Counted from the first letter of the stretch, positions 34,777 to 64,000 are shown. The stretch is 64,000 nt of DNA from Patescibacteria group bacterium (GCA_018969615.1 JAGWYA010000001.1:169141-233140); one strand, 5' to 3'. Notes: generated by a model not told the origin, from the letters alone. Numbers and translations are program-made.

Positions 34777-34846
34777 AATAGCAAATCAACGCCAAAAAAG
34801 TCTTTAATAAATGAGAAAATCTCGCTTTAAAAAATAACAAGCCGAA

Positions 34847-35416: not shown

Positions 35417-35620
35417 CTCGCTGGTAAAGACCTACTTTGAGCATAAAGGATTCCCTTTAAATATCAAGGTAACGCGATCGTCAAAATAGGACAGCGCATC
35501 CGGCGAGAAGGCAATCTCAGCACCGAGTTCGAATACCGAAAGGTCGGCGCGCAAGAGTTCGGCGCCTTGGTGCCCAAAAAACATACCTCCTGACACAGGA
35601 GGTATGTTTATATCCCAAAA

Positions 35621-35896: not shown

Positions 35897-35946
35897 TAAA
35901 AAGCCGCCTGCGCTTTAATAAGACGGCCCATGCTCCGGATCGGAGC

Positions 35947-48823: not shown

Positions 48824-48836
48824 TGGAATCAATTCT

Positions 48837-49382
48837 ATGAATCCGCAGGAGCCGCAGTACAAACTGATCGTCGGCCTGGGAAACCCGGGTCCTGATTATG
48901 CGAACACGTACCACAACGTCGGCGCCTTGGCAGTGGATCATCTCATTGAGGAAACGCGGCCGCTCACATTGAAAAAGAACGTTTCCAAGAAATTCCAATA
49001 TGCGGCGGACGGCAACATCATCTTCATTAAGCCGCTGACCTATATGAACGAATCCGGCGTCGCCGTAAAGAACGCGCTCAAGCAGTTCAAAGCGACTCCG
49101 GAAGAGATCCTCGTCATCCATGACGATTCGGATATCACGATCGGCGAATACAAGCTCTCGTATGAACGGGGTGCCGGCGGGCACAAAGGCATTGAAAGCA
49201 TCATCCAGCACCTCAAAACAAAGAAATTCTGGCGGCTCCGCATCGGCATCCGTCCTCCGGCGATCGCCGGCACGCCGCGTAAAAAAGCGGAGGAATTCGT
49301 CCTCAAACGGATCTCAGCCGCACATCGGCGGTTGCTGGAAACAGTTTTCACTGCGATCAGCGCGCATATGGAACAGCTGTAA
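48837..49382 (+). CDS. pth: Peptidyl-tRNA hydrolase.
   Basis: LIVGLGNPGPDYANTYHNVG signature. Confidence 0.95.
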   Translation: MNPQEPQYKLIVGLGNPGPDYANTYHNVGALAVDHLIEETRPLTLKKNVSKKFQYAADGNIIFIKPLTYMNESGVAVKNALKQFKATPEEILVIHDDSDITIGEYKLSYERGAGGHKGIESIIQHLKTKKFWRLRIGIRPPAIAGTPRKKAEEFVLKRISAAHRRLLETVFTAISAHMEQL

Positions 49383-49465
49383 TAGCACGTAGGGAGTAGG
49401 CAGTGGGCAGTAGTTAAATGTTAAAGGTCAAAGGTAAAAATCTCCGGCTGCTGCCGGAGATTTTT
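49383..49465. repeat. Half-element plus terminator, site 2. Plus-orientation words TAGCACGTAGGGAGTAGGCAGTGGGCAGTAG (49383-49413), then hairpin TCTCCGGC-TGCT-GCCGGAGA plus T5 (49436-49465).
   Basis: Read directly. Terminator for pth and for the PilMN gene. Confidence 0.65.
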
Positions 49466-50969
49466 AAGCGGAAAACGTGATCGTGAACGAGATCGTTCCG
49501 TCGATGTTTTGCTGGATCTTGGCGAGCGGAAGCGCGATATCCTGCAATCCCGCTTTTGTCAGGTTGTTCTTGAAATCGATCGCATCGGTCTGCGTCGCCG
49601 CCTTGGCGATGATGAAGCCGGTTCGAGTTGTCGTATCGAGCTGAAGCCGTACGAAGCTGACGCCCTGGGCCACTGAATTGATCTTCTCAAGGAACGGCGA
49701 CCAGACATTGCTGTTCTGGCGCGCATACTGCGTCTTCGTCACCAGCGCATTGAACATTTTCGCCTGAGCGGCAAGCTGCGTCACCTCAACGCCGGTCGGA
49801 AGCTGGGTCGTCCCCTGCACCTGCTGCACGATATCAACATAGGTCCGCGCAAGGAAGCTATCAACGACCACGAACATCAGGATAAAAAACATGGCGGCGG
49901 TCAGCAGGACATTCCGCCAAAATGTGATCAAAAACATGACCTGGGCGTAGAAATAGCCGTCCTCCGTTCCGATCGCCATCAAGCTGATGAAAATATCCGA
50001 AGCGCGGTTGACGGTCGCACGATATGCAGCGCCGATCAAGGCAGCCCAGGAAAGAGGCACGGCTTCGTATCCGCGGAAGGAAAGCTGCGTCACTTTATAA
50101 TGAAATTGATCCTCAATGAACTGCGCAGTCTCCTGCTGGAACGCCGGCGCGATCAAAGCAACGTTCAACAATCCGCCGCCCCAATGGTTCGCATAGAACG
50201 TACTGACCTTCTTCAACTCACGGTAGATCGTCGCCTTGAAATCGTCGAACGAGATCTCCCTCGCGGTATCGCCGGAAGGCATGAGATGCCACGGCGTGAA
50301 ATAATCGAAATACATGTTGCCATACCGGTAGATCATGAAGTCGATCCCGTCGTTCGTGATATTCATCACGATATACGGCTGCTCGGCATCAACGCCGACG
50401 CCGAACATTCTGATAGCCCGGGCGAGCGCAAGAGCGGGAAACTCAACGGCAACCGTCGTAAAACCGGCTTCCTGAAGCGCATCAACGTAAAGATCCACCA
50501 CTTCCCGCCGCGCGAACGCACCAAGATATTCAACGTTCCCGTCCTTTTCATGCAGCCGCTCCCAGTCCGCGTACACTTGCGCATACTCCGTCGGCGTAAG
50601 GCTTTGGAGATTCAATTTAATTGCCTCCGCTTCCTTCGCTTCGTTCAGCTTGGGAAGCGTAAAAACCTGCGCATAGACGCGCGGCGGCGGAATGATCGCG
50701 ATGACCGACAATTTTTCTTTGCGCTCCGGCGCGAACTGCGCCTTCAAGGTCTTGAGCTGCGCGACCAAGCGTCCCTTATCCTTCACGACCCCCTCCTGAA
50801 TGATCCCCGGTTCCAGCAGAAACCCCTCTTTCTTCAGCGATTTTTTTACGATCTGGCCGATCCGCAGCGATGAGTCGCTGAACTCAAGGCCGACCAACGG
50901 CTCTTTCGGAAGCATCATCCATTGGAAAAAGCCATTGACCTGTTCTAAAAGTTTTTTAAAGGAATTCAT
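49464..50969 (-). CDS. pilM: Type IV pilus assembly protein PilM fused to a PilN-like TM plus periplasmic domain.
   Basis: Actin-like ATPase-fold N-terminal about 330 aa (LGLEFSDSSLRIGQIV...), then TM helix VMFLITFWRNVLLTAAMFFILMFVVV and a roughly 130-aa PilN-like tail. Confidence 0.65.
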   Translation of the reverse strand: MNSFKKLLEQVNGFFQWMMLPKEPLVGLEFSDSSLRIGQIVKKSLKKEGFLLEPGIIQEGVVKDKGRLVAQLKTLKAQFAPERKEKLSVIAIIPPPRVYAQVFTLPKLNEAKEAEAIKLNLQSLTPTEYAQVYADWERLHEKDGNVEYLGAFARREVVDLYVDALQEAGFTTVAVEFPALALARAIRMFGVGVDAEQPYIVMNITNDGIDFMIYRYGNMYFDYFTPWHLMPSGDTAREISFDDFKATIYRELKKVSTFYANHWGGGLLNVALIAPAFQQETAQFIEDQFHYKVTQLSFRGYEAVPLSWAALIGAAYRATVNRASDIFISLMAIGTEDGYFYAQVMFLITFWRNVLLTAAMFFILMFVVVDSFLARTYVDIVQQVQGTTQLPTGVEVTQLAAQAKMFNALVTKTQYARQNSNVWSPFLEKINSVAQGVSFVRLQLDTTTRTGFIIAKAATQTDAIDFKNNLTKAGLQDIALPLAKIQQNIDGTISFTITFSA

Positions 50970-50981
50970 AATAGCCGTTCC

Positions 50982-53900
50982 TTAATTCATTACCTGAAGA
51001 ACAGCAGTTCCCGAAACCGCAACCGGAGGGACGATCGTAAGCGAGGTCATCGCAGCGATTTTGGCATAACAAGACGTGTGCTCATTGAAGACAGACGTTT
51101 CACTTCCGTAGGTACTTGCGGCATTGTAGGTGAACATTTGGCGAGCCGAATTTGCCGCTGATGACGTAAACGGATCTATGATCAAATTTATATCATCAAC
51201 GCTTGCCGTCATCGTTCCCGTACTTAGCTGGAACGGACAGCCGGTCCCAGCAGTAGATCCGATGCCGCCGGATGCCGCCGCTGAATTGCTGTAATTCCCG
51301 GCATAAAGATATGCGGCAGTTGAAGAATTATTAACACGGAAATACCATGTTCCTGCAGTATTTGTCGTCGGAGTTAAATTTGCGGATAACCGATAAACCG
51401 TACCCGTGGTTAATCCCGAGAATGTAATAGTGGTTGCTCCGCTCACTGTTTGATTCGAAACAGTCGTCCAAGCACCCGAACCGACAACCGGAGTTGCGGC
51501 GTAGTATGCATCAATAATAATCACGCCGGAACCACCGGCACCTCCTTGACATGCGCCAGTTCCGCCTGAGCCGCCTCCGCCAACGGCGTAAGAATAAGAC
51601 GACGCAAGGCTCGTGATCATGAATTTTGCATATTCACCCGCGCCACCACCGGCGGAATAAGCAGGTGATCCGGCATTCCAATAACAGCCACCGCCGCCGG
51701 CGCCTGAATTTGCCGCACCGGCTACGCCGTTACCCTCAGATCCATTATATGTTGCACGGCCGCCGCCGCCGAAGAATGAGTTTCCGCCTCCGGTAGAATA
51801 ACCATCGGGAGTCGAGCCGCCACCACCGGCGATACGCAATAAAGCGGTTCCCGTTCCGCCAGTTCCGCCAGCACCACCGCCACCAGTAGTCACCGCCGCA
51901 CCGCCGCCGGGATTTGCCGTAACCCCATCAAATGAAGTTGCGCCTCCGGTTGATCCAGGGCCAGCACTTGTATGAGCACCCGAACCACCACCACCACCAC
52001 CGACCATCTGTATCACTAAATAGGCAGCGTTTGCAGGGGTTGTATATGTCCCGGTTCCCGAGGTAAGCACTGTTTCAGTTGGCGGAAGTGCGGATCCTCC
52101 CCCGCCCGCCGTCGTCTGGATCGTACCGTCGGGGAACTTAATACCGCCGGTTTCGGAGTAGATCGTCCCCTTCACGTCCAGCGCCGAATTCGGCGTCGTC
52201 GTCCCGATGCCGACGTTACCTGAAGAAGTGATAACCATATGTGTATTCGCTCCGCCGGTCATAAACTCGAGATTGCCCGCAGCATCTCCAACATTATAGT
52301 TGTCAGCAACCGCTGATTGGAGCGTGCCAAGATTGTTCGTCCATTTTATTAAACCGTTCGCGGTCGCCGTATTGCTCGTATTAAGGGTAAGTGTTGGTGC
52401 CGAAGAATTTAGCGCGGAAAGCTGCAAAAGACTTCCCGGCGTCGTGGTTCCAATGCCGACATAACCGCTGTTATTGATCGTCAAACGAGTCGCGCCATTC
52501 GTATTATCGTAGATCCGGAAATTATGAGTCGCATCAATCAAGCCGTTTCCGATCGTCCAGCCGCTGACGCCGTCATCGGTTCCGAAACCAAGGCCAACTG
52601 ACGAAACCGAAGTACCGATCAACTGAGCACTGCCGTTAACCGATAATAGATGTTGAGGATTTGTTGTCCCAATACCAACATTCCCGCCGTTTGGATTGAT
52701 CGCAAGCGGATGCGTCAGATCAGCGCGATTCGAATAATGCGCTTGGATCCATCCGTATGCTCCTCCTGTGTAAGCAGCTCCGATGTTAACCTCAGGGTCT
52801 CCAACGCTCAAAGACCCAAACTGCGCACCTACGGTAACCGGGGATGCTGCCGTTTGCGGGGCGCTGTCCCCCGTATTAACGGTCAAGATACTCCCGGGCG
52901 CCGCCGTCCCGATGCCGACATTACCGGTTCCTGCAGTACTATTCAAAAGAAGGTTACCGCCTCCAGTCCACGCATCAATGCCGAGATCGTTTCCGGTCCG
53001 GAATACTCTTCCCATCGTTGTCGCACCGGAGGTCAATAACGCCCAATCAGGCGATGCCGCCGTCGAATTGATCCGGAACGGCGTAGTACCGGTAGTCGCA
53101 TCAACGGTAAGCATATGATCGGGTCCTGTTGTCCCGATACCGACATTCCCGCCGTTTGGATTAAGAGCTAAAGGATATGTTGCCCCACCACCTACTTGGA
53201 GGTACCCTGTCCATGGAGGTGCGTTTAACAATCCCATGTTTATTTTCCCCGTTGTATTAGCATGTATTTGAAATTCAGTGCTTCCAGCCGTGCTCGGATT
53301 TGCTTCCGCCGTAGTATCAACCTCGAGCGCCGCTCCCGGATTCGTCGTTCCAATGCCCACATTTCCCGTATTGTAATACGCACTGGTCCCGTTCTGGGTC
53401 CACAATCCGCCCTGACTCGCCGATGTCTGAGTCGTTCCATCGGCGTACCGGATGCCGCCGGTCGTATACACCGTCCCGACTACGCTCAAGGCCTGCGAAG
53501 GCGAGGTGGTTCCGATACCGACATCTCCATTGCCTGATTTCACGACTAAGACTGGTGTTCCTCCGCCATTAGCAGTATTGAAGTAGATATCGCCATAGTT
53601 TGTCAGCACCTGCATCAAGTCTCCGCTTATCGTATTCTTAATATCCGTACGATGACCGGATGGAGATTGATTGATCGCAAACGTTTGGGTTCCTGCATTA
53701 CCAATAGAAAATCCATTGTCATAACCAGGCGTTCCCATAAGAGAAAGATAGGCACCTACCGATTGGTTGACCACGGCTAAGGTCCCCTGCGGCGTTGTTG
53801 TTCCAATGCCCACATTGCCGCTTGAATCTATATGCAGAGCGCTCACCGGATTATTGGCCGTCTTCGAAATGTCGAAATCAAGCGTGCTCAGATAACCACC

Positions 53901-56807
53901 GAGCGTTGTTGAAACGATTGAAGAGATCGGCCCTAAGTGATCCGCAAAACTCAATGTCTGCGTATCGCCCGCAATTGCATTGTCATTTCTGATCCAGGGA
54001 TCTGGGTCGCTCGTTGGTTTATAAATTTCAAGCGTGGCATTTGGGCTCGCTGTGCCGATACCCACTTTTCCGCCAACCTGCGTCAATGCCGTTTCTTGAG
54101 CGTATGTTGTCGGTGCCGTCACGGCCGAAGTTGCGGTTGAAGCCGTAAAGGCGTCGGCATTAATGCCCTCCTGCTTGATAACGATATAAGCCGTTCCCAC
54201 GTTTGCCCCATCAGTCGCCGTTACCCGCAAGCGAAGCGACAAAACAGTTCCTGACATCATTTCATCAAGTGCAAAATCATTCCCGGAATATGCCCCCGAA
54301 CTTGAAATAGGCAAAACTGTTTCCCATGTAGCATTTTGCTGGCCATATTGGATCGGAAGAATATACTGCTTCGCGGCCGAATAACCGTTTGATGGTACCG
54401 TCACCGAGATCCGCAAAGATCCTCCACCGTCCGTAAAGGCAAAACTGCCGATATCAACCTCATTATTGACCGTCAACGGCAAGGTGCGGGTCAACGGTAT
54501 AATATTTGCATTCGTAAACTTGACGTCACCGCTTCCGTCAATCGTCAGCCTCGTCACGCCATTCGTATTATCATAAATGCGGAAATTATGCGTTGCATCA
54601 ATAAGGCCGTTCCCGATCGTCCAACCGCTGACGCCATCATCGGTTCCAAAGCCAAGCCCAACCGAGCCGGTCGCGGTGCCGACTAGCTCGGCGCTACCAT
54701 TTACAGAAAGAAGGTGGTTCGGCGTAATATTTCCGATGCCGACATTGCCGCTCATAAAAACAGTATTAGCAAATGTATTATCCCTGCCAAAGTAAAGATT
54801 CCCGCCATTCGCCTGCGGATCAATATTAACGCCACTCCCCCAAGCTAATAATCTCAAAGATCCTGTCAAACTTGATGGATAGGTTACTAAAAGGGACGTG
54901 CTCGAGGTAGACGAAGAAACTTCTAGAGTTCCTCCCGGATTCGTTGTCCCGATACCGACAGCTCCGGCATCCGTAACCGTAAGCCGAGTCTGATCAGTCC
55001 CCTGAACAACGAAATTGCCGACTGAATCTTGGCCTATATCGATAAAACCAGACCCTGCTCCCTGGAAACGAACTTGCGGGCCTGCGCCGTTAGCACCAGT
55101 CCATTGCCCAACAAGCACCGTCCCTAGATAATCGGCATTATTAGCACTCACCGAGAGCCTTCCGGTTGTGCCAACAACATCGAGATTATAGGCTGGATTC
55201 GTCGTTCCAATACCGACATTGCCGGTGTTGTAATAAATATTCGAGCCATTTGAAACCCATAACCCTCCCGCCGAAGTCTGAAGCGAACCGTCAGGATACT
55301 GGATCCCGCCGGTCGCATAGACCTTTCCGGCGACGCTCAACGCCTGTGATGGCGAAGTGGTTCCGATACCGACGTTGCCGTTATTCACTATTCTCATCCT
55401 CTCCGGCGCTGCAGTACCCGCTACTTGAGATGCATCTGTATAAAAACGGATCGATCCATCGCTTGGATAGCCGATCCCAGCAAGGTTACCGGTTGAATCA
55501 TGAGAAGGCGTCGCTTGGGCAATTCCATTCCAGTTAAAATTATATCCGCCGCCATGACCGCCGCCGTTATCTAAAGTCGCAACACGCGCGTAGGAAAGAT
55601 TGCCCAGACGGAATTCACTCGCCGAGCTGATCCCATTCACATCCAAGAGCGATCCCGGGTTTGTCGTCCCGATACCAACATTCCCGTTCGTCAATACGAC
55701 CAGTTTTTGCGCCCCACCTTCGCTTAAGGCAACCGGCTGGCTTCCGCCGTTGATCGTAAAAAATCCACCCGGAGCGGCTCCGCCATCTTGGATCGTTGAC
55801 GCATTCGGGAACGAAATCCCTTCCACCGGGATCGCGTTACCGCCGATCGCGATACCCTGAAGCGTCCCGGCGCGAATACCGCCATTTACATCAAGTGCGT
55901 CTGTCGGATTCTGTGTGTTGATACCGACGTATCCCAAACTATTGACGTTAATCCCAAGCACGGCGCCACCGTCGCGACCAAGATACATATCGCCATCACC
56001 TCCGATATATCCCACCGCGCCCTCGAATGCACCGCTGGGGCCGAACATCTGAATACTCTTATTATAATCAGGTGCTACCGAAGGATCGGTGTACATTTTT
56101 ACCGCATATCCCGCACCCACATTGATACTAAGCGGATTCGTGCCAACTCCAGCCGACCCGATCCCAACACCGCCATTCGAATCAATTGATAACCGAGTTA
56201 CGCCGCTCGTATTGTCATAAATACGGAATGTGTGTGTCGAGTCGGTCAAACCATTTCCGATCGTCCAGCCGCTGACGCCGTCATCCGTTCCGAATCCGAG
56301 ACCAACCGATGAAAGCGAGGTGCCAATGAGCTGAGCATTGCCGTTCACGGAAAGAAGGTGCTGCGGGGCAGCCGTCCCGATACCGACATTGCCGTTCGCA
56401 GCGAGGATCGACATTTTCGTACCCTGATTCACACGGAATGCAAGATCATGGGCAGTGTTCAATTCCATGCCTGCATCCCAGGCGGCGCTGTTATCATGGA
56501 AATAATATCCGAGCACGGCGCCGGCGCCCGCAAGACCAATGCCGCAATTCGATGAATTCGGACACTCAACCAGAAGCGGGTTATTGGTTGGAAAAGAGGC
56601 TGAAGTTAAAAGAGAATTCCCGCCATGAACATACAGGGTCGTTCCTGTGGTGGGCGCCGCGCCTCCGATATCCAATGATGCCGGCAAGTTTCCCGATGGC
56701 GGTGATGTGCTCGGTTCAGTCCAAGCCGCAAAAACCACGTATGACGAAAGAAGCAACAACGTCGTTACCAGGAAAATAGTTGCCGTGTTCTTCACTAAAC
56801 GCAACAT
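50982..56807 (-). CDS. Giant secreted fiber/adhesin-like protein (about 1940 aa) with tail-fiber-type GNVGIGTxxP repeats and a Gly-rich C-terminal region.
   Basis: Start at Met54 of the track ORF (MLRLVKNTATIFLVTTLLLLSSYVVFAAWTEP signal peptide). More than 15 copies of ...NGNVGIGTT(N/S)P... and ...LSVNG.A.L.G... repeats. C-terminal poly-Gly tracts. Confidence 0.8.
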   Translation of the reverse strand: MLRLVKNTATIFLVTTLLLLSSYVVFAAWTEPSTSPPSGNLPASLDIGGAAPTTGTTLYVHGGNSLLTSASFPTNNPLLVECPNSSNCGIGLAGAGAVLGYYFHDNSAAWDAGMELNTAHDLAFRVNQGTKMSILAANGNVGIGTAAPQHLLSVNGNAQLIGTSLSSVGLGFGTDDGVSGWTIGNGLTDSTHTFRIYDNTSGVTRLSIDSNGGVGIGSAGVGTNPLSINVGAGYAVKMYTDPSVAPDYNKSIQMFGPSGAFEGAVGYIGGDGDMYLGRDGGAVLGINVNSLGYVGINTQNPTDALDVNGGIRAGTLQGIAIGGNAIPVEGISFPNASTIQDGGAAPGGFFTINGGSQPVALSEGGAQKLVVLTNGNVGIGTTNPGSLLDVNGISSASEFRLGNLSYARVATLDNGGGHGGGYNFNWNGIAQATPSHDSTGNLAGIGYPSDGSIRFYTDASQVAGTAAPERMRIVNNGNVGIGTTSPSQALSVAGKVYATGGIQYPDGSLQTSAGGLWVSNGSNIYYNTGNVGIGTTNPAYNLDVVGTTGRLSVSANNADYLGTVLVGQWTGANGAGPQVRFQGAGSGFIDIGQDSVGNFVVQGTDQTRLTVTDAGAVGIGTTNPGGTLEVSSSTSSTSLLVTYPSSLTGSLRLLAWGSGVNIDPQANGGNLYFGRDNTFANTVFMSGNVGIGNITPNHLLSVNGSAELVGTATGSVGLGFGTDDGVSGWTIGNGLIDATHNFRIYDNTNGVTRLTIDGSGDVKFTNANIIPLTRTLPLTVNNEVDIGSFAFTDGGGSLRISVTVPSNGYSAAKQYILPIQYGQQNATWETVLPISSSGAYSGNDFALDEMMSGTVLSLRLRVTATDGANVGTAYIVIKQEGINADAFTASTATSAVTAPTTYAQETALTQVGGKVGIGTASPNATLEIYKPTSDPDPWIRNDNAIAGDTQTLSFADHLGPISSIVSTTLGGYLSTLDFDISKTANNPVSALHIDSSGNVGIGTTTPQGTLAVVNQSVGAYLSLMGTPGYDNGFSIGNAGTQTFAINQSPSGHRTDIKNTISGDLMQVLTNYGDIYFNTANGGGTPVLVVKSGNGDVGIGTTSPSQALSVVGTVYTTGGIRYADGTTQTSASQGGLWTQNGTSAYYNTGNVGIGTTNPGAALEVDTTAEANPSTAGSTEFQIHANTTGKINMGLLNAPPWTGYLQVGGGATYPLALNPNGGNVGIGTTGPDHMLTVDATTGTTPFRINSTAASPDWALLTSGATTMGRVFRTGNDLGIDAWTGGGNLLLNSTAGTGNVGIGTAAPGSILTVNTGDSAPQTAASPVTVGAQFGSLSVGDPEVNIGAAYTGGAYGWIQAHYSNRADLTHPLAINPNGGNVGIGTTNPQHLLSVNGSAQLIGTSVSSVGLGFGTDDGVSGWTIGNGLIDATHNFRIYDNTNGATRLTINNSGYVGIGTTTPGSLLQLSALNSSAPTLTLNTSNTATANGLIKWTNNLGTLQSAVADNYNVGDAAGNLEFMTGGANTHMVITSSGNVGIGTTTPNSALDVKGTIYSETGGIKFPDGTIQTTAGGGGSALPPTETVLTSGTGTYTTPANAAYLVIQMVGGGGGGSGAHTSAGPGSTGGATSFDGVTANPGGGAAVTTGGGGAGGTGGTGTALLRIAGGGGSTPDGYSTGGGNSFFGGGGRATYNGSEGNGVAGAANSGAGGGGCYWNAGSPAYSAGGGAGEYAKFMITSLASSYSYAVGGGGSGGTGACQGGAGGSGVIIIDAYYAATPVVGSGAWTTVSNQTVSGATTITFSGLTTGTVYRLSANLTPTTNTAGTWYFRVNNSSTAAYLYAGNYSNSAAASGGIGSTAGTGCPFQLSTGTMTASVDDINLIIDPFTSSAANSARQMFTYNAASTYGSETSVFNEHTSCYAKIAAMTSLTIVPPVAVSGTAVLQVMN

Positions 56808-56828
56808 GTTCTTATTGTACCATTTTTT

Positions 56829-56948
56829 AGGGCAGTAGTCCGTAGCCCGTGGGCAGTGGGGATAGTAAGCAGGAAGTAGTGCACGGACAGTAGAAATATA
56901 GTGCGTAATAGTACACACCCCCAGTGCATCCAGTCGAGGATTGGATGC
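56829..56948. repeat. Element arm plus duplicated gene fragment, site 3 left. Plus-orientation words (56829-56904), a roughly 55-bp decayed duplicate of the 3' end of gene 57515..58801 including the 16-mer CCCCCAGTGCATCCAG (56908-56923), and a hairpin GCATCCA-N19-TGGATGC.
   Basis: Alignment of 56880-56940 to 57516-57575 is about 80% identical. 16/16 core identity. Confidence 0.65.
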
Positions 56949-56966
56949 GCCTAACCGAAGCTCCAT

Positions 56967-57155
56967 TTATTTTTTATATGCGATCCCCAGATCTTTGCAA
57001 ATTTTCTTTGCCAAAATTTCATCGATCTCGCTATGCCGGGGAACCGTAGAGGTTCGATTGAGCGACGGATTTAAAAAGACGCTGTGTCTTGCGCCTTCTC
57101 TGGCAAGGACGCATCCGTTCTTGAACAGACGCCTTATCAGATCGTTCCGCTTCAT
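56967..57155 (-). CDS. hicA: HicA mRNA-interferase toxin.
   Basis: 62 aa. LIRRLFKNGCVLAREGARHSVF... is the YcfA/HicA pattern. Confidence 0.85.
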   Translation of the reverse strand: MKRNDLIRRLFKNGCVLAREGARHSVFLNPSLNRTSTVPRHSEIDEILAKKICKDLGIAYKK

Positions 57156-57162
57156 TATTTTG

Positions 57163-57384
57163 TTATTTCTGAGAAACCGTCAGAGGCTCTCTGATTATTT
57201 TCCCGGAAACTTCTTTCCGGGCAAACTCCCTGTTCGTCTCCAAGATCAGCAGCAAGGCTTCCTTAAGATTTTCCTTTGTTTCTTTTAAGGTTTTACCCTG
57301 AGTATTCACGCCCGGAATCTCCTCGATCCAGCCCAGATACCATTTTTTGCCCTTCCTGTAATTGGCGGTAAAGCGCTTTGTCAT
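57163..57384 (-). CDS. hicB: HicB antitoxin (UPF0150 RNase-H-like fold).
   Basis: 73 aa. KKWYLGWIEEIPGVNTQGKTLKETKENLKEAL. Adjacent to hicA. Confidence 0.8.
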   Translation of the reverse strand: MTKRFTANYRKGKKWYLGWIEEIPGVNTQGKTLKETKENLKEALLLILETNREFARKEVSGKIIREPLTVSQK

Positions 57385-57468
57385 ACTTTCAAAATAACAC
57401 GCTTCAAAAGGAAAAACAATTTAATTTCGCCCCGGATCCCGCATCAAGTGCGGAATGACAATGTGGCT

Positions 57469-57540
57469 GCCACCCCTACTCCCCACTACCTACTGCCTAC
57501 TCCCTACTTACTATTTAGTTCGTATGCACGTAATAATACA
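57469..57540. repeat. Element arm, site 3 right. Minus-orientation words CCACCCCTACTCCCCACTACCTACTGCCTACTCCCTACTTACTATT, running into the 3' end of gene 57515..58801.
   Basis: Reverse complement matches the plus-orientation array at 56829-56904. Confidence 0.6.
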
Positions 57541-58801
57541 CATCCCCCCAGTGCATCCAGCCGAGATCGGCATCATCCCAAGACCAACCGCTGAAGCGCC
57601 CTCCGGAATCGATCGAGACGCCATAGCTGCTGTTATCAAGCGCGGTGCCCGCCAAATGGATCCAGCTCCCCGATCCCATCACCTTCGCCCAACCGGTCAG
57701 CGTTTTCGGGAACGTGCCGGTCAATCCGCCGGGGATCGTCGCATTACAGGTTCCGCTCGGGCAACCCACCAGATCGGATGCCGTAAAACTGATCCAACCG
57801 AGAACATCCGACCAGGCATAGCCGTCCATCACGCCGGTCGTCGCGTTCACCGTCACACCGTAATTCGATGTCCCGCAACTCCCCTGATTGGAACAACTGA
57901 AGCTGATCCAGCCGAGATTCGAGTACGCCCATCCGGAGATCGCGTTCGTACCGCTCTGCGTCAGAATGCCATACGCCACTTCACTCAGTGATTCCACCTT
58001 CACTTCACCGGTCGCCTGGTTCACATCGAGGATCGCCTTCAGTTGGTGCGTGCGGTTCTGCATGCTCCCCAGCGAAATGATCTGGTCCTTGTTCAACCCG
58101 ACGCAATTCGGCGCCGGCTGGTCCGCGCACACGGTCACGTTTGCGATACTGCCGTCGGGGAATGACAGTGCATATTGGCCCGAAAATGTTTTATCGCGCG
58201 CGATCCGCAGCATTGCATCCTGGATCCCTGATTGCGCCGCCGCGAGCGCCTGCGCGTTCAACCGCGCATTCAGCTCCGTTTTACTGGTCAATGCATTGCC
58301 CACCAATAACGCGACCGCGATCTCAATAACCAGCCCGCCGATCATGATGACAAGCGGCAAAGCGGCGATGCCCCGCTTTGCCCGTAGTCCGTGGGCAGTA
58401 GGCAGTGGAGGAAAAGATACTTTCAGGCTCCGAAGTTTTCTCAAAAGCACATTCAGCATTTTCATAACCATCTCAAGAAGTTGCTCAACTTTTTTATATT
58501 CACTTTCATTCATAAGCATGTTCCGCTTTGCTATCTCAAGTTGAGTCTCCAGTTCAGCGCCGGAACCAAAAGCGATAGATAAGAATTGAATATACGATCC
58601 GTCAGAATTCCTTCGGTATCCTTCAGCAATATTCGAAGGAATAGAAACCGCCGCACGACGCATCTGAGACACAAGACCGAATCGCTCACTATCAGGAAAC
58701 TTATTTGTCAGCAAATAGATCTCATCAACAAGATCGATGCTCTTCTGCCATACGGTTAAGTTTTTATATGTTTTCAGTTCCATAATCTGTCTATATATCA
58801 T
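57515..58801 (-). CDS. In-frame fusion. N-terminal four-helix-bundle protein of the 23S-rRNA-intervening-sequence family (about 127 aa) joined to an atypical prepilin-like TM segment and a roughly 280-aa secreted domain ending in a GW-rich module shared with 62635..63918.
   Basis: GGGAGGT RBS plus ATG at 58799-58801. Residues 1-127 MIYRQIMELKTYKNLTVWQKSIDLVDEIYLLTNKFP...IAFGSGAELETQLEIA are typical 4HB (PF05635-like). No stop before KRGIAALPLVIMIGGLVIEIAVALLV. C-terminus GWISFSCSN...CG..NYG...GWISF...GWMHW. Confidence 0.6.
   Translation of the reverse strand: MIYRQIMELKTYKNLTVWQKSIDLVDEIYLLTNKFPDSERFGLVSQMRRAAVSIPSNIAEGYRRNSDGSYIQFLSIAFGSGAELETQLEIAKRNMLMNESEYKKVEQLLEMVMKMLNVLLRKLRSLKVSFPPLPTAHGLRAKRGIAALPLVIMIGGLVIEIAVALLVGNALTSKTELNARLNAQALAAAQSGIQDAMLRIARDKTFSGQYALSFPDGSIANVTVCADQPAPNCVGLNKDQIISLGSMQNRTHQLKAILDVNQATGEVKVESLSEVAYGILTQSGTNAISGWAYSNLGWISFSCSNQGSCGTSNYGVTVNATTGVMDGYAWSDVLGWISFTASDLVGCPSGTCNATIPGGLTGTFPKTLTGWAKVMGSGSWIHLAGTALDNSSYGVSIDSGGRFSGWSWDDADLGWMHWGDVYYYVHTN
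58382..58407. repeat. Left inverted arm of the 4HB cassette (CGTAGTCCGTGGGCAGTAGGCAGTGG). It lies inside the coding frame, encoding LPTAHGLR.
   Basis: Reverse complement of 58843-58874 (GTAGTCCGT identical, then GGCAGTGG words). Confidence 0.65.
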
Positions 58802-58807
58802 ACCTCC

Positions 58808-58874
58808 CTACTGCGCACGATCTACTTTTCTACTTTCTATTTCCACTGCCCACTGCCTACTCTCTACGGACTAC
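58808..58874. repeat. Right inverted arm of the 4HB cassette (...CCACTGCCCACTGCCTACTCTCTACGGACTAC), overlapping the stop of 58871..59809.
   Basis: See the left arm. Together the arms bound a roughly 390-bp segment of visibly lower GC (about 40% vs about 58%). Confidence 0.65.
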
Positions 58875-59809
58875 TTGCTAAGCCCTATCGAAACACTATC
58901 CACTTGCGGCGTGGCGTTTGCGGTATCAAAAATGATCTTGTACCGGAAATAGCGCGCATTGATATAAGGAGATGCCGGGATCGGAACCTGCACATTCGGT
59001 CCCGCGGGCTCCAGAAGCGATCCGTAACTCCATGGACCGCCGGAACTGTTCGAGGTCGCGATCTCAAATCCCACTTTTGATCCGCTCGGCTGGGTCCCCT
59101 GCCAGATAAAATAATTATACCCTGCTCCGTTCGTTTCCTGCGTATCATACGTGCTGGAAACCACTTCACACTGCTCGGAAGCGGCGTTACAGGTCGTGAG
59201 CGACGGCAAGATCGATCCCGGCGTACCGGTATAATTGACATTCGCTGATGAAAAAAACTGACCGTTCGTACGCGTGATCGGTCCCGCTTGTCCCGACCCG
59301 TTAGACCAATCGGTCTGCGTCACGGCGAACGACTGCCACCGCGTCACATAAAAAGAAGTGGAAACGGTCTGTGCGGCGCCCAAGACCGGGAACGAGGTCG
59401 TCACGGTTACCTTCCGGGTATAGGGATCATCCCCGCTTGAACTATAAGTGGCATCGATCAACCCCGCGGTCCGGGAAACCGGGTCCACATAAAACGAGCG
59501 CGTGAACGAAATATTATTCACCGTGACGGTCTCAGGGCCGACAGCGGATGCCAGAACCCCGCCGGTATTCGTCAGATGATAGGTGTTCGCCGAGCCCGTG
59601 GTCAGCGCATACAGATCGGGCCAATTCCCGCCTGAAAATGAACGCACCTCATCGCCCAGTGAATTATTGACGATCGTTGCGCTCTGACTCTTCGTATTGA
59701 ATTCATTGGTGCGGACGCTCACCACATACGCGCCGCCGATCCCCGTCAAAACCAGCGCGCCGATACCGAGCGCCACCAATACTTCCACTATTGACTGTCC
59801 GCTTCTCAT
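58871..59809 (-). CDS. Type IV pilin/pseudopilin-like protein (class III signal peptide).
   Basis: MRSGQSIVEVLVALGIGALVL: G then QSIVE with Glu at +5, and a hydrophobic helix. Ser/Thr/Asn-rich secreted domain. Confidence 0.7.
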   Translation of the reverse strand: MRSGQSIVEVLVALGIGALVLTGIGGAYVVSVRTNEFNTKSQSATIVNNSLGDEVRSFSGGNWPDLYALTTGSANTYHLTNTGGVLASAVGPETVTVNNISFTRSFYVDPVSRTAGLIDATYSSSGDDPYTRKVTVTTSFPVLGAAQTVSTSFYVTRWQSFAVTQTDWSNGSGQAGPITRTNGQFFSSANVNYTGTPGSILPSLTTCNAASEQCEVVSSTYDTQETNGAGYNYFIWQGTQPSGSKVGFEIATSNSSGGPWSYGSLLEPAGPNVQVPIPASPYINARYFRYKIIFDTANATPQVDSVSIGLSK

Positions 59810-59824
59810 GAACTTATTCTAACA

Positions 59825-60005
59825 TAGGCAGTAGTGAGTAGGCAGTTGGCAGTAGGGATAGTGAGTAGGAAGCAGAACGTGGGCAGTAGAAATAGTAAGT
59901 AACGAGTAGGCAGTGGCGCGTAGAAAGGATGAGATACAAAAATTCCGACGAAGAGTCGGAATTTTTTACTACTGCCTACGTGCTACTTTCTACCTACTAT
60001 TTCGT
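59825..60005. repeat. Palindromic intergenic element, site 4 (empty). A plus-orientation word array (59825-59927: ATAGGCAGTAG TGAGTAGGCAGT TGGCAGTAGG ... GTGGGCAGTAG ... AGTAGGCAGTGG), a central terminator hairpin TTCCGACG-AAG-AGTCGGAA plus T6 (59943-59967), and minus-orientation words (59968-60005).
   Basis: Read directly. One strand is almost devoid of C outside GCAG. Confidence 0.75.
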
Positions 60006-60308
60006 CGGAGCTGTAAGGCTTTGGAGGATATTCTGCATTTGCTGAGGCGTCGGAGCCTGAACCGTACTCGTCGCGCTCGGCGCCGGCGCATTGATGGATG
60101 CCTGGATCTGTGCCTTCTCTTCCGGCGTTAACTGCGGCGGAGGAAGCGTCGGGCTCGTGAATCCCGGCGGTATCCGATTCGAAGACCGCGCCCACTCCGA
60201 CTGCCACCAGCCCACCAGCCATGACCCCGCCGCCAGGATCGCAGCGATCACCAATAAAACACTCAGCTGTGTGCGGTATTTTTGGAAATAAGTGATGGGC
60301 TTATCCAT
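59997..60308 (-). CDS. Small membrane-anchored Pro/Ala/Gln-rich protein.
   Basis: Start at Met7 (MDKPITYFQKY). 1 TM then a low-complexity tail. Confidence 0.5.
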   Translation of the reverse strand: MDKPITYFQKYRTQLSVLLVIAAILAAGSWLVGWWQSEWARSSNRIPPGFTSPTLPPPQLTPEEKAQIQASINAPAPSATSTVQAPTPQQMQNILQSLTAPTK

Positions 60309-60315
60309 GTTTCCG

Positions 60316-62469
60316 CTAATTAACATCCATTAACGTCAATGACGATCGCATTCTTGCTGACCAAACATTACCGCTGGCATCGCTTCCCAGCGCGTTAACT
60401 TTCAAAGCAGCGCCCTGTGGAGAATCTACTTGTATCCGATATGTCACTGGGCTCGCAGTCCCCGGAGAATCTAAATAAATAGCTGATCCTTCCTTATTAT
60501 TATTTGGGTCGGATGATCCTCCGTAGAAACTTGGCGAAGAAACGCTGAGATACCCAGTTACTGTAGGCGGAACTGCTACAACCGTATCTACGCCGCCAAC
60601 ATTCCTAACAATTCTATAATATCCGGCGTCAGCTCCACCCATTCCAATATTCACATTCGCCATCACGAGTATCCTACTCGACGCCGAATTCGGCGTTATC
60701 GTTTCAGAAAAACCAGTGACATCAACCCATGTTGTCGACGTAGTCGAAAACACAGTCATGAACTCATTTGATACAACATTCATAGAACTCATGTTTCTCC
60801 CACTAACATTCAGATCCCCATTTACCGACAAATTCCCCTGCACTCCGACGTCGTCATAGAATTGTGCATTTCGGCTCACGCCCAAACGCCCGGTCGCAAG
60901 AATATGCGACATCGGAACATAAAAGACGCTGTTCAATGTAGTCACGTTGCTTGGATCACCAATACCGTCAACAATATAGACATAGCCATTGACGATCGTC
61001 GCTGCAAAATTACGTATATTCGCCGGCATATTCGTTGAAGAGCTCCAAGCGCTGTCCATCGTGCCGTCGCTGTTGATATGAATATAATAGACTGATGAAT
61101 ATGAATAGCTTCCGGTGCAGTTATTGCAATCACCGCCAAGCACATAGAGATCGCCGTTTGATGCAACCGCAGCGCCTACGCCCCGAGGACTTGGAAGCGA
61201 CGTAGTATTACCCCATGCGCCGAGTCCTCCATCCGGTTCGATCTTTGCATAATAGCCGGTCGCTTGATATATACTCGATGAATCCCACCCGCTGATCACA
61301 TACACATACCCGTTCACGACAGCGCCCTCGGCGCCATTTCTAAATGTAGGAAGCGGCGTTGTCGTCCCCCACGTACCAACCGTCCCATCACTGTTCACTT
61401 TTGCAGAATAAACCGTTGTCGAACTGCCGCCGCCGATCTGGCCGCTGATCACGTAAATATAGTCGCCCGCGGTAACAACTACGCTCTCGCTCGCGGTAGC
61501 GGGCAGCGCCGTTGTCGTTCCCCAAGCTCCCAACGTTCCGTCGCTATTTACTTTTGAGTAATAAACGGTATTGTAACCGCTGTCTAGCATATAGATGTAA
61601 CCGTTCAACGTCACCGCAACACCGCCTTCCGCGACCGGCAAGGCGCTTGTTAACGTCCATGTACCAGGGGTTCCGTCGTTCCCAATTTTTGCATAGTATA
61701 CCGTGGTCGAGTTAGTACCGCTGACGTTCCCTCCAATGACATACAAATAACCATTCACGGATACGAGTCCGTTGCCATAGCGCGTATCGGGAAAGTTCGC
61801 AGCAGTCGTCCAAGTTCCTAGATCCCCTGTTGTGACAGGTGTATTCGTATTATAGATATTTGATCCTAACGTTGACCACCCTCCGCCTCCCGATGAAGCT
61901 GTCGTCTGCGTGGTGCCGTCGGGGAATTTGAATCCGCCGGTTTCTGAATAAATAATCCCTTTCACATCCAATGCCGAGTTCGGCGTTGTCGTCCCGATGC
62001 CGACATTGTTATTGGACTTAAGGATCGTCAATGGATGACTTGAAGTGCCGTAATTAAAAAGGGAAAAATCTTCATTGCCCGATTCATTCCCTAAGCCCAT
62101 ACCCCACTGACCGTTGCCCGCAGTGAGGAATTCAAGCCAAGCGATATAGCTGCTGTTATTTGTTCTATCCAAATTAACCCATGCATTCGCACTGCTAGGA
62201 GCGATCACCAATGCCTGTTGCGGAGTCGATGTCCCGATGCCGACATTTCCTAAACTCACAATAAGTCCATTCGCCGCGCCGCCGGTGTTCAAAATGAGGC
62301 CGCCGGCTTTCGTTTGGCCGGTCGCGCTCACATCAAGCGGCGCCGATACGTTCCCGCCTGTCGGCGCCACCGTCGGTTCTGTCCACGAGGCAAAAACAAC
62401 ATACGCCGATGCGAGCAATAAAGCACTTACCAGAAACATTTGGATCGTTTCACGAAGAAAGCGTTTCAT
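60316..62469 (-). CDS. Secreted fiber-repeat protein with a six-blade Kelch-type beta-propeller and a C-terminal beta-sandwich domain.
   Basis: Signal peptide MKRFLRETIQMFLVSALLLASAYVVFASWTEP (same N-terminal pattern as the giant protein), GNVGIGT(S/T)TP repeats, then six units of ...NGY.YV(I/L)GG...VYY(A/S)K(I/V)N.DGT.G.W... . Confidence 0.75.
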   Translation of the reverse strand: MKRFLRETIQMFLVSALLLASAYVVFASWTEPTVAPTGGNVSAPLDVSATGQTKAGGLILNTGGAANGLIVSLGNVGIGTSTPQQALVIAPSSANAWVNLDRTNNSSYIAWLEFLTAGNGQWGMGLGNESGNEDFSLFNYGTSSHPLTILKSNNNVGIGTTTPNSALDVKGIIYSETGGFKFPDGTTQTTASSGGGGWSTLGSNIYNTNTPVTTGDLGTWTTAANFPDTRYGNGLVSVNGYLYVIGGNVSGTNSTTVYYAKIGNDGTPGTWTLTSALPVAEGGVAVTLNGYIYMLDSGYNTVYYSKVNSDGTLGAWGTTTALPATASESVVVTAGDYIYVISGQIGGGSSTTVYSAKVNSDGTVGTWGTTTPLPTFRNGAEGAVVNGYVYVISGWDSSSIYQATGYYAKIEPDGGLGAWGNTTSLPSPRGVGAAVASNGDLYVLGGDCNNCTGSYSYSSVYYIHINSDGTMDSAWSSSTNMPANIRNFAATIVNGYVYIVDGIGDPSNVTTLNSVFYVPMSHILATGRLGVSRNAQFYDDVGVQGNLSVNGDLNVSGRNMSSMNVVSNEFMTVFSTTSTTWVDVTGFSETITPNSASSRILVMANVNIGMGGADAGYYRIVRNVGGVDTVVAVPPTVTGYLSVSSPSFYGGSSDPNNNKEGSAIYLDSPGTASPVTYRIQVDSPQGAALKVNALGSDASGNVWSARMRSSLTLMDVN

Positions 62470-62480
62470 ATGTTTAGTAT

Positions 62481-62638
62481 AACATAGGAATAGTACGTAG
62501 GAAGTAGCACGTGGGCAGTAGAAATGGTTAGTAGTAAGTGGCTCGTAGGCAGTGGGGATAGTCCGTAGTAAGTTGGCAGTGGTACGTAGAAAAAATTCTC
62601 TACTGCCTACTCACTACGAGCCACTCGCTACTATCTAG
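62481..62638. repeat. Palindromic intergenic element, site 5 (empty). Plus-orientation words (62481-62590: ...GTAGGAAGTAGCACGTGGGCAGTAG...GTAAGTGGCTCGTAGGCAGTGG...GTTGGCAGTGG) then minus-orientation words (62600-62638: CTACTGCCTACTCACTACGAGCCACTCGCTAC).
   Basis: Arms share a 12-nt exact inverted core CTACGAGCCACT / AGTGGCTCGTAG. Confidence 0.75.
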
Positions 62639-63918
62639 TTCACTCTCGCCCCATAGCTCACGCTTCCGCAGGCGCTGGTATTACTACAATTAAAGCTCAA
62701 CCATCCAAGCGTCGTCGAGTCCCAGCCCCAGCCTGACAGCGTTCCATTTGCAGCCAACGACACGCCGTATGTACTTGCATTCTGCGCCGTCCCACTTAAA
62801 TGGAGCCAACTTCCCGTCGAGATGATCTTCCCCCATCCGGTCATTGCCGTCGGGAACGGACCCGCAAGACCGTTCGTGATCTTCGCCACACAATTCCCGC
62901 TCGGACAGCCGGTGAGATCGTTCTGATTGAAATCGATCCAGCCGATCGTCGGCGACCACGCATACCCATTCAGGATCCCCGTGCTCGCATCAGCGTTCAC
63001 GCCATAGTTCACCGTTCCGCACGTTGTCGTATTACTGCAATTAAAACTGATCCAGCCGCTGTTCGACGACCAGGCAAAACCGGACATCGGCACATACGTC
63101 GTATTCACGGTCAGAATAAAATTCGCGGTTGTGGTCGCGGTCCCATCCCCGATCTGCACGGGCAATGTCACGCTTCCCGACGGCGTTGAAATACTTGTCG
63201 TTAAATTCAAGGTAGCGCTGCAATTCGGCGTACACGTCGCCGGATTAAACACCGCCACGACACCGCTCGGCAAATTACTGACGGAAAAGGCACCCGCATG
63301 CGGGATCCCCGCAGTAACGGTCACGGTCGCGGTTGTTTGCGTCGATCCGCCCGCCTGTATCGTCGCGGTCGTCGGCGACAGGCTCATCGTCAATTGTTCA
63401 CCCGATGCGCTCTTTGAGGTTGTGATCAATCCGCTTCCGCTTAAAACCGAAATATATCGGACGATTGACGTGTCGGCCGTCAACGCCAGCGTGATCCCAT
63501 GATCTATCGCCGGGATCCCGGTCACTTTCGGAAAGTCGATCTCTTCCGTATTTCCCTGCGCCGGAGTCAAAAATTCGACCGACTTTGGCAAATAAACCGT
63601 ATCAGTCACCGTTCCGGTCGCATACGAATCTCCGTAAAAAACCTTATAATAATGGCCCCCTACTGCCGGCGCGGCATCCAAATAAACCCCCCAGGCGGAA
63701 TTCTCATACTGCGATTGCGCATTCTGCTGCGCAGCGACCAAATTATCCTGAAGCTGTTTCGCAGCGGCATCCAGCTCAGTGGTCGAACGGAACACCGTCG
63801 GCAAACTCATAACCGCGGCGGTACCCAAGATCGCCGTGAGCGCCGTAACGATAACGATCTCCAACAGCGTGAAGCCGGCAACGTGCTTAGTCCGCAAGGA
63901 TGATCTTTTAGGCGTCAT
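62635..63918 (-). CDS. Type IV pilin-like protein with a large C-terminal domain ending in the GW-rich module shared with 57515..58801.
   Basis: MTPKRSSLRTKHVAGFTLLEIVIVTALTAILGTAAV is a canonical prepilin leader (G then FTLLE, Glu at +5). C-terminal module GWISFNCSN..CG.VNYG...GWIDF...GWLSFNCSN. Confidence 0.8.
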   Translation of the reverse strand: MTPKRSSLRTKHVAGFTLLEIVIVTALTAILGTAAVMSLPTVFRSTTELDAAAKQLQDNLVAAQQNAQSQYENSAWGVYLDAAPAVGGHYYKVFYGDSYATGTVTDTVYLPKSVEFLTPAQGNTEEIDFPKVTGIPAIDHGITLALTADTSIVRYISVLSGSGLITTSKSASGEQLTMSLSPTTATIQAGGSTQTTATVTVTAGIPHAGAFSVSNLPSGVVAVFNPATCTPNCSATLNLTTSISTPSGSVTLPVQIGDGTATTTANFILTVNTTYVPMSGFAWSSNSGWISFNCSNTTTCGTVNYGVNADASTGILNGYAWSPTIGWIDFNQNDLTGCPSGNCVAKITNGLAGPFPTAMTGWGKIISTGSWLHLSGTAQNASTYGVSLAANGTLSGWGWDSTTLGWLSFNCSNTSACGSVSYGARVN

Positions 63919-63940
63919 ACCTTATTAGCTTATCACAAAA

Positions 63941-63973
63941 ATAGGCAGTAGAAAGATAGTCGAACGTCGAATG
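63941..63973. repeat. Start of another plus-orientation word array (ATAGGCAGTAGAAAGATAGTCGAACGTCGAATG) at the window edge, upstream of the pilin-like gene.
   Basis: Read directly. Truncated by the window end. Confidence 0.5.
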
Positions 63974-64000
63974 TCCAATGTCAAAAGGAGGATGCCTTAG

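Follow-up and report, generated by a model that had tools for sequence, protein, structure and literature searches.

A 64,000-nucleotide stretch of DNA from a member of the Patescibacteria, referred to here as the window and used for all numbering, holds at positions 49464 to 63918 a locus in which type IV pilus genes stand together with genes for very large proteins resembling phage tail fibers. By profile matches and gene order, this locus is well supported as belonging to a type IV pilus (T4P) operon of the Patescibacteria, of which it forms the distal portion. We think it probable that this distal half of the operon contains an accessory fiber module and that the pilus carries the fibers for binding to a host; the same probable reading takes a four-helix-bundle gene and a HicAB pair within the locus for recent selfish insertions into the repeat arrays between the genes. 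In Patescibacteria, type IV pili are already known to attach the cells to their hosts, and an adhesin role has been proposed for lectin-like minor pilins (PMC11623550, PMC11880426). All genes of the locus are on the minus strand and are ordered, in the direction of transcription, pilin 1, fiber A, a small membrane protein, pilin 2, an open reading frame (ORF) in which a four-helix-bundle domain runs into a PilX-like pilin with a GW module, HicB, HicA, fiber B and a PilM-PilN fusion. A preliminary description of this DNA had listed six of these ORFs, and all six were found in place on the minus strand. Its identification of a pilus locus, of tail-fiber-like proteins and of two paralogous GW modules also stood, the fiber-bearing pilus that it suggested is here probable, and its treatment of the third prepilin as an ordinary one and its repeat count did not stand; absent from it were the in-frame four-helix-bundle gene, HicAB, the small membrane-protein gene and the heptamer arrays.

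By their sequences, the three pilins look like minor pilins of the tip type, belonging to the GspH/FimU-like, PilV-like and PilX/GspK-like classes; in systems already characterized, pilins of these classes make up the complex that primes and tips the pilus. Pilin 1 (62635-63918) was first described as having a class III signal peptide, and this is borne out by the cleavage context HVAG↓FTLLE (arrow, cleavage site), an N_methyl score of 21.9 bits (cut-off 21.2) and best profile matches to GspH (TIGR01708, E = 1.6e-9) and ComGD. Its AlphaFold2 model (mean predicted local distance difference test score [pLDDT], 86) comprises a pilin-type helix (residues 18-69), a pilin beta-sheet (76-168), an immunoglobulin-like (Ig) domain (175-272) and the GW module (275-427). 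The class III signal ascribed to pilin 2 (58871-59809) is likewise present, as MRSG↓QSIVE followed by a hydrophobic stretch, though its profile scores are below threshold (N_methyl, 16.9 bits; TIGR02523 PilV, E = 0.014). Orthologs of pilin 2 adjoin the PilM-PilN gene in the related loci L129, L133 and L152, and the ortholog in locus L001 contains an NHL propeller insert. The C-terminal domain of pilin 2, about 150 amino acids (58871-59330), has the pattern WQGTQPSG..F.IA.SNSS.GPW.........YFRYK..F, recurs in the NHL-propeller pilin of Harrisonbacteria (L001, 13236-15062) and in the GW protein P0034, and had no match in the Pfam, NCBIfam and PHROG scans. The third pilin (57515-58381) shows the cleavage context RG↓IAALPLV, in which Glu+5 is absent, as in GspK/PilX.

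The 501-amino-acid PilM-PilN fusion (49464-50969), recognized as such in the preliminary description, is made up of an actin-like PilM half (about residues 20-330), a transmembrane (TM) helix and a PilN-like periplasmic domain. PilM is identified by TIGR01175 (E = 1.8e-11), PF11104 (27.8 bits) and the PDB structure of PilM 2ych (E = 0.0013). The PilN half is identified at the family level only: the window's own C-terminal half gave no direct profile match, a profile of the relatives' C-terminal halves found the M. xanthus PilN 3jc8 as its best PDB match (E = 0.0029), and 12 of 23 relatives matched Pfam PilN (PF05137). The architecture is a common one, with 367 cluster representatives at E ≤ 1e-30 and a length of about 500 amino acids in nearly all of the 150 listed.

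Orthologs of pilin 1 lie directly 3' of PilB (T2SSE) and PilC (T2SSF) genes in L001 (Candidatus Harrisonbacteria), L002 (GCA_039731935.1) and the contig L123, as well as in loci of the L133 type. L001 runs on through a 501-amino-acid PilM_2 protein into pth-lepB-hisS-HIT-YqeY, the same flank as in the window, where the chromosome 3' of PilM-PilN continues with pth, signal peptidase I (lepB), HisRS, HIT, YqeY, YbeY, FtsA, FtsZ and ribonucleotide reductase. Because pilin-1 orthologs follow PilB-PilC and L001 shares the window's flank, pilB and pilC very likely start just past position 64000 in this genome, where the preliminary description had supposed that they might lie. More distant operons with the same fiber module (L161, L142, L143 and L157) also encode PilD and a major pilin. 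It is the synteny with PilB-PilC, on top of the pilin and PilM profiles, that settles the assignment to a T4P, and an identical protein at NCBI, MBU6141757.1, which is encoded on a 240-kb contig, is labeled "Patescibacteria group bacterium," in agreement with the first reading of the locus as the pilus of a small-genome bacterium.

The database matches strongly support fibers A and B as Sec-exported, tail-fiber-like proteins homologous to Bd2133, a mosaic adhesive trimeric (MAT) fiber of Bdellovibrio. Fiber A (60316-62469) has 717 amino acids, and fiber B (50982-56807) has 1941, its real start being the Met at 56807. The shared N-terminus noted at the outset is real: both proteins begin with a Sec-type signal peptide ending VFA(A/S)↓WTEP, are 35% identical over the first 172 amino acids (E = 1e-17) and have the GNVGIGT motif in common. 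"Dozens" of such repeats was an overcount, the motif GxVGIGTxxP occurring 16 times in fiber B and twice in fiber A. In fiber B it punctuates beta-prism/helix repeats with large internal duplications, which are accompanied by a glycine-rich region and a C-terminal domain. The tail-fiber character proposed for the repeats is seen in matches of fiber B to PHROG tail-fiber families 9942 (E = 1.5e-32) and 18345 (E = 2.6e-24) and to Bd2133 (PDB 8ond_A, E = 5.9e-15), and in the match of fiber A to Bd2133 over its beta-prism segment (residues 64-216, E = 1.8e-14). The six-bladed Kelch propeller described for fiber A matches six-bladed Kelch structures in the PDB (E = 4e-19) as well as Pfam Kelch families, and a further C-terminal domain lies beyond it. 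A PilY1-type propeller (Pfam Neisseria_PilC) had no match in the fibers, the propeller of fiber A being of the Kelch type, and the C-terminal domains of both fibers had no match in the Pfam, NCBIfam and PHROG scans.

After the signal peptide, both fibers share a strongly conserved N-terminal module (N-module) of 57 amino acids, which in fiber A reads WTEPTVAPTGGNVSAPLDV...GNVGIGT. When residues 1-206 of fiber A were used as the query, the matches formed a family of at least 450 proteins, whose source-labeled members are all from Patescibacteria/candidate phyla radiation (CPR) lineages or unclassified. The consensus of the module is WTEPTxAPPGGNVxAPLNVGxTGQxKAGGLILNTGGAANGLIVxxGNVGIGTxxP; its length is constant at 57 amino acids in 78 of 84 members, and its mean column identity is 76%. 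The C-termini of these relatives form a mosaic of Collar, Peptidase_S74, Gp53-like_C, Gp34_trimer, Gly_rich_2, H_lectin and Shufflon_N domains.

A sister strain is represented by the ENA contigs L209 to L211. Between the window and L209, nucleotide identity is 95.9% for the 3' end of pilin 2 and 91.6% for the ORF of the PilX-like GW pilin, yet the downstream fiber, in the slot of fiber B, is only 33% identical as a protein while having the identical AWTEPSTSPPSGNLP start. In other relatives, the same two slots are occupied by a 267-amino-acid Collar fiber, a 687-amino-acid propeller fiber and a 701-amino-acid phiTE-type fiber. We conclude from these alignments that the contents of the fiber slots are swapped from strain to strain, in the manner of the receptor-binding proteins of phages.

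The second component of the putative module is the GW domain, which consists of about four units of the form G(Y/W)AW...GW(I/L)SF...YGV. The C-termini of pilin 1 and of the PilX-like pilin are 55% identical over 132 amino acids (E = 9e-51), so the paralogous module of about 130 residues that had been reported for 62635-63918 and 57515-58801 is confirmed. A reading of it as a Listeria GW/SH3b domain is not: the domain matched no Pfam, NCBIfam or PHROG model, the Listeria-type GW among them, and ChW reached only an E value of 0.52. Modeled alone with AlphaFold2, it is all-beta (pLDDT, 92; predicted template modeling score, 0.87), and a Foldseek search with the whole pilin model returned Ig-like matches only. 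The domain occurs in about 120 retrieved Patescibacteria proteins, alongside fn3, Ig, PG_binding_1 and SLH domains, and 26 of 122 sampled GW proteins have pilin N-termini. Standalone GW proteins have a Sec signal peptide and a conserved C-terminal motif of their own. This motif, [FW]-x-E-[IVT]-x-P-[FWE], is common to standalone GW proteins and neighboring secreted proteins, is not followed by a TM helix and is found in 22 of 96 non-pilin GW proteins; examples are WKEIVPF, PIFEEI and FKEVPPE (L125, 8696-9565 and 10367-11860; L127, 6163-7260 and 8835-9854; L161, 7099-8469; among others). It may act as a signal for sorting or docking that is specific to the lineage.

The third component is the small membrane protein (59997-60326), which has about 103 to 109 amino acids and one TM helix, followed by the pattern PPQLTPEE..IQ.SINAP....LTAPxK. 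It had no match in the Pfam, NCBIfam and PHROG scans, and orthologs stand at the same position in L001, L123 and L124. Gene neighborhoods were compared in 80 metagenome loci around the N-module, with flanks of 6 kb and profiles for GW, the N-module, the small TM protein, PilB, PilC, PilM-PilN and pilin 2. Thirty-nine of the loci were 5 kb or longer, and of these, 19 contained the small TM gene and 15 a GW gene; the small TM gene was directly upstream of the fiber (within 600 nucleotides) in 23 of 65 informative cases. L161, L142 and L143 share the order pilB-pilC-major pilin-second pilin-pilD-three minor pilins-small TM-fiber. The major pilin genes directly 3' of pilC in such related operons are short (MKKKGFTLIELLVV...). 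A GW gene comes directly after the fiber in L161 and L143, and L142 stops just past the fiber; L157 has the same operon start and then reaches the contig end. In operons of the L161 type, the GW protein has a Sec signal peptide and no pilin N-terminus. The clade of the window, which includes L002, L123, L124, L129, L133 and L152, has GW instead as a fused part of both pilin 1 and the PilX-like pilin, and in the window each fiber gene comes after a GW-pilin gene. That GW has a gene of its own in the operons of one lineage and is built into pilins in another suggests, in this comparison of gene orders, that GW, pilus and fiber act together.

In the mechanism that we find plausible, the three minor pilins would form a priming complex from which PilB and PilC build the filament; this complex would end at the pilus tip, two of its three pilins carrying an all-beta GW domain. 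The fibers would be exported separately and would probably trimerize. Docking would be the task of the 57-amino-acid N-module, which would attach a fiber to the GW domain and/or the small membrane protein; that GW docks the fiber on the pilus is what we infer from the pilin fusions and gene order taken together. The pilus would then present a long fiber whose variable C-terminal tip, such as the Kelch propeller or the glycine-rich domain, would bind the host surface. Both fiber slots would be hypervariable between strains, the breaks in homology lying within the inverted heptamer arrays on either side of the genes. A wider generalization can be offered more tentatively, as possible but, taken whole, doubtful: many Patescibacteria would mount exchangeable tail-fiber-like fibers on T4P by a three-part adaptor of GW, small membrane protein and N-module, host range would be set by swaps of fiber genes, and the bundle would perhaps be tolerated as a cleaved 144-residue leader.

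Several observations weigh against fibers carried on a pilus. Within the window, neither PilB, PilC nor PilD is among the 39 ORFs scanned with Pfam, as the preliminary description had also remarked, and a major pilin was not seen; nor was PilT among the scanned ORFs. T4P genes were found in only 9 of the 39 loci of at least 5 kb, a lower bound given the 6-kb flanks. In L125 and L127, the trio of fiber, small TM protein and GW protein occurs with no detected homolog of pilB, pilC, PilM-PilN or pilin 2 in the stretch fetched, within about 8 kb, most neighbors there being unannotated. A fusion of GW with the N-module was not found among 242 proteins. The GW-only model had no significant Foldseek match (best E value, 0.28 in PDB and 0.068 in BFVD), and because GW also occurs together with PG_binding_1 and SLH domains, a lectin that binds the wall or glycans would suit it better than a fiber dock. 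Finally, the PilX-like pilin may have been knocked out by the in-frame insertion described below.

Some of these points are what would be expected if the fibers were free-standing surface adhesins that are merely cotranscribed with pilus genes, GW being a lectin or wall-binding module for glycans of the host or of the cell's own envelope, and pilus and fibers working in parallel. The loci L125 and L127 are consistent with this, as are the joining of GW to PG_binding_1, SLH, fn3 and Ig domains elsewhere and the standalone GW proteins with their Sec signal and conserved C-terminal motif. MAT fibers are displayed at the cell surface (PMC10769870), and lectin-like minor pilins were already proposed as adhesins in Saccharibacteria (PMC11623550). 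However, the trio stands repeatedly at the 3' end of complete T4P operons, and two different minor pilins have GW as a fused domain in the clade of the window. Moreover, a conserved partner is implied because the N-module is so extremely conserved. We regard free-standing adhesins as unlikely on the whole, and as the most serious of the alternatives.

We consider it improbable that the machine is a short pseudopilus like those of competence or of the type II secretion system (T2SS), serving DNA uptake or fiber export and not adhesion by a retractile pilus, with the GspH- and GspK-like pilins as its piston tip. It would accord with the GspH and ComGD profile matches of pilin 1, with the missing Glu+5 of the third pilin, as in GspK, with the lack of a major pilin and PilT in the window, and with the link of Patescibacteria T4P-like systems to DNA uptake as well (PMC11623550). 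Yet T2SS-like homology of core minor pilins is normal in true T4P (PMC11623550), related operons have the short major-pilin genes directly after pilC, and the fibers have ordinary Sec signals in organisms with no outer membrane to cross. That the tail-fiber-like genes are remnants of a prophage or tailocin lying beside pilus genes by chance is very improbable, since the PHROG tail-fiber matches and the phage-type tip domains of relatives are set against a locus with no other phage genes, a chromosomal position kept across distant Patescibacteria, a signal peptide and N-module common to the whole fiber family, and a GW model that had no match in a viral structure library.

A pilus that carries fibers, as preferred here, has parallels in several known systems. 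Like the minor-pilin/PilY1 complex of type IVa pili in Myxococcus xanthus and Pseudomonas aeruginosa, the locus combines a cluster of GspH/FimU-, PilV- and PilX-like pilins with a large Sec-exported beta-propeller adhesin. The adhesin of that complex is reportedly expected at the pilus tip (Treuner-Lange 2020, as cited in PMC11623550). Unlike in that complex, there is no PilY1/PilC-family match here, the N-terminus is conserved and the C-terminus variable (the reverse of PilY1), the shaft is tail-fiber-like, two pilins carry an extra GW domain, and PilM and PilN are fused. MAT fibers are surface-displayed trimeric adhesins with swappable tips that serve in prey recognition (PMC10769870), and their bearer Bdellovibrio attaches to other bacteria. 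The fibers described here share with the MAT protein Bd2133 of Bdellovibrio bacteriovorus (PDB 8OND; PMC10769870) homologous shaft repeats and a signal peptide with a conserved N-terminal portion behind it, and with MAT fibers in general a long repetitive beta-shaft, mosaic swappable C-terminal tips and, in relatives, S74 chaperone tips. MAT fibers are obligate trimers with an N-domain of about 130 amino acids, whereas the conserved N-terminal motif recognized here has 57 and the fibers are predicted trimers; furthermore, the genes lie inside a T4P operon with GW and small-TM partners, and one member reaches 1941 amino acids.

The T4P-2 pilin PilX2 of Saccharibacteria (PMC11623550) is also a minor pilin of a Patescibacteria T4P with a large C-terminal all-beta domain, there proposed as a host-binding adhesin. 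In PilX2 the beta-propeller is within the pilin, in contrast to the present locus, where propeller and tips are on separate fibers and the pilins carry the structurally unmatched GW domain. The PilV of R64/IncI1 is likewise a T4P tip adhesin with exchangeable receptor-binding ends, its C-termini being switched by a shufflon, and the fiber relative P0148 matches the Shufflon_N constant region (E = 7.4e-9). The present locus differs in having no invertase or shufflon repeats, in whole-gene replacement between strains and in a fiber that is not a pilin. T4P with tip adhesins are already known. In the searchable literature, we found no description of a tail-fiber-like family with a constant N-module, of a fiber, GW and small membrane protein at the end of a T4P operon, or of GW fused to minor pilins, and full-text searches for the NVGIGT motif and for combinations of tail fiber, pilin and CPR found no paper with such an arrangement.

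The ORF at 57515-58801 had been described as a prepilin with a degenerate signal. It instead carries a 144-residue N-terminal extension, a selfish-type four-helix-bundle gene (58430-58801, residues 1-124) fused in frame, of which residues 13-124 are a full-length 23S_rRNA_IVP domain (PF05635, 132.1 bits, cut-off 33.8; TIGR02436, 126 bits, cut-off 24). Orthologs of the pilin part (P0076 to P0080) have 298 to 304 amino acids, 53 to 60% identity and no four-helix bundle; they start with M and a leader of 13 to 18 amino acids, followed by (R/K/N)G↓IAALPLV. The corresponding predicted cleavage in the window is KRG144↓IAALPLV. There is no stop codon after the bundle, and no ATG, GTG or TTG lies between the IVP domain and KRG; the pilin part is readable only as a bundle fusion in this genome. 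The Prokaryotic Genome Annotation Pipeline (PGAP) annotates the same fusion, and the sister strain has it too, in three independent ENA contigs. It is possible that the fusion is made and that prepilin peptidase removes a 144-residue cytoplasmic "leader"; a translation restart at a TTG or ATG within IAALPLVIM and a knocked-out pilin are the other possibilities.

The bundle gene has a GUAG array upstream and a CUAC array downstream of it and is surrounded by an inverted repeat (58375-58408/58850-58883, 82% complementary). Between the window and L209, the 372 nucleotides of the bundle part have 0 synonymous and 2 nonsynonymous differences, and the pilin part has 90 synonymous and 11 nonsynonymous differences, with proportions per synonymous (pS) and nonsynonymous (pN) site of 0.43 and 0.017. 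Because the bundle has no synonymous differences while the adjoining pilin has a pS of 0.43, these alignments mark the bundle and the 5' end of the pilin as a very recent arrival that spread between diverged strains, and the pilin gene as one long under purifying selection before the insertion. The pN/pS of about 0.04 was rejected as proof of current function of the PilX-like GW pilin, since most of the divergence predates the very recent insertion. We also rejected a diversity-generating retroelement: bAvd scored 29.7 bits (cut-off 40) and DivGenRetAVD 25 (cut-off 80), and no reverse transcriptase was among the 39 ORFs. The repeats within 49000-64000, the part of the window covered for a template/variable pair, are fiber-internal repeats or heptamer arrays.

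HicB (57163-57384; UPF0150, 30.4 bits, cut-off 27.3) and HicA (56967-57155; HicA_toxin, 43.4 bits, cut-off 27) are a toxin-antitoxin cassette, adjacent and co-oriented between the PilX-like GW pilin gene and fiber B, inserted between GUAG and CUAC arrays. After them comes a duplicate, about 40 nucleotides long, of the last part of the GW-pilin gene, its 3' end (56913-56950 versus 57540-57577). HicAB is absent from the sister strain L209, where the spacer has 232 nucleotides.

Degenerate (NNNGTAG)n arrays occur in every spacer from 48607 to 63961 except the 12-nucleotide junction between fiber B and PilM-PilN (48607-48638, 48753-48811, 49382-49413, 56835-56859, 57476-57514, 58384-58408, 58843-58881, 59831-59923, 59969-60000, 62490-62589, 62600-62638 and 63942-63961). 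The pattern matched 27 times against 0 expected, with no match in 1-48600. On the sense strand, every full spacer has the layout stop-(GUAG)n-short hairpin-(CUAC)n-start, and the bundle gene and HicBA occupy the place of the short hairpin in their spacers. RNA folds of two spacers gave z scores of -5.3 and -5.4, and one of them encloses a terminator-like stem. It is inside the arrays that L209 ceases to be homologous to the window. The same arrays run throughout the pilB-pilC-pilin operon of L002, and none are present in L001, L123 or L124. Arrays also bracket pth, some form a 34-nucleotide higher-order repeat (59816-59923 and 62482-62589), and a second heptamer run, GACATTG GACATTC GACGTTC, lies at 63965-63990, just upstream of a CUAC array at the window end. 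The arrays may have a role in the processing or stability of mRNA, in the control of translation or as junctions for recombination. A promoter and terminator scan gave counts about 1 to 2 standard deviations above shuffles and missed hairpins visible by eye, and Rfam found no RNA family in the locus.

Known intergenic heptamer repeats include the cyanobacterial short tandemly repeated repetitive (STRR) sequences. TAACTGA heptamers have been described upstream of start codons in Beggiatoaceae, Cyanobacteria and Bacteroidetes (PMC4679880). Like these, the present arrays are tandem 7-nucleotide units in spacers, often directly 5' of starts lacking a Shine-Dalgarno sequence; unlike them, they are degenerate, form inverted pairs that bracket genes and can pair as long hairpins, occur in a single operon of the 64 kb and have inserted genes in their loops. 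They are not a new repeat class, as GTRG heptamer arrays are widespread across phyla and period 7 dominates in Patescibacteria loci, where tandem repeats of at least 4 copies (in 584 kb) numbered 52 for period 7, 9 for period 6 and 5 for period 8. Lineage-specific period-7 units (GATACGT, ATTTGGA, TCAATTT and others) were seen in L130, L137, L138, L142, L159, L161, L207, L208 and others, and in L142 a period-7 array (3554-3780) is inside the pilD reading frame. An association of arrays with the four-helix-bundle gene was dropped, the gene being nearby in 3 of 120 array-bearing loci of other phyla, which we judged close to chance. An integron-like cassette array, which the hairpin-bounded genes and the toxin-antitoxin cassette had brought to mind, was set aside as well, no integrase family being among the 39 scanned ORFs and no attC-type boxes being seen, though neither was searched for systematically.

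The other scanned ORFs of the window are housekeeping or transport genes. From 32001 to 36000, around a histidine-kinase gene (32629-34776), the G+C content is 0.44 to 0.47, compared with about 0.53 elsewhere, so that this stretch is possibly an island of foreign DNA.

With its inserted four-helix-bundle gene and its heptamer arrays, the locus is also a natural example in which the spread of such elements inside operons can be studied. In a wider context, how ultra-small episymbionts choose their hosts is an open question; T4P are needed for attachment in the few cultured Saccharibacteria, and the receptor-binding parts are poorly defined. The locus family described here is a concrete and widespread candidate for such parts, with a constant N-terminal "plug" and swappable tips that go together with GW and a small membrane protein. 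If such a plug-and-socket arrangement is true, fiber genes could be usable as strain markers, the system could be directly testable in cultured strains, and the host range of uncultured Patescibacteria could be readable from their fiber tips.

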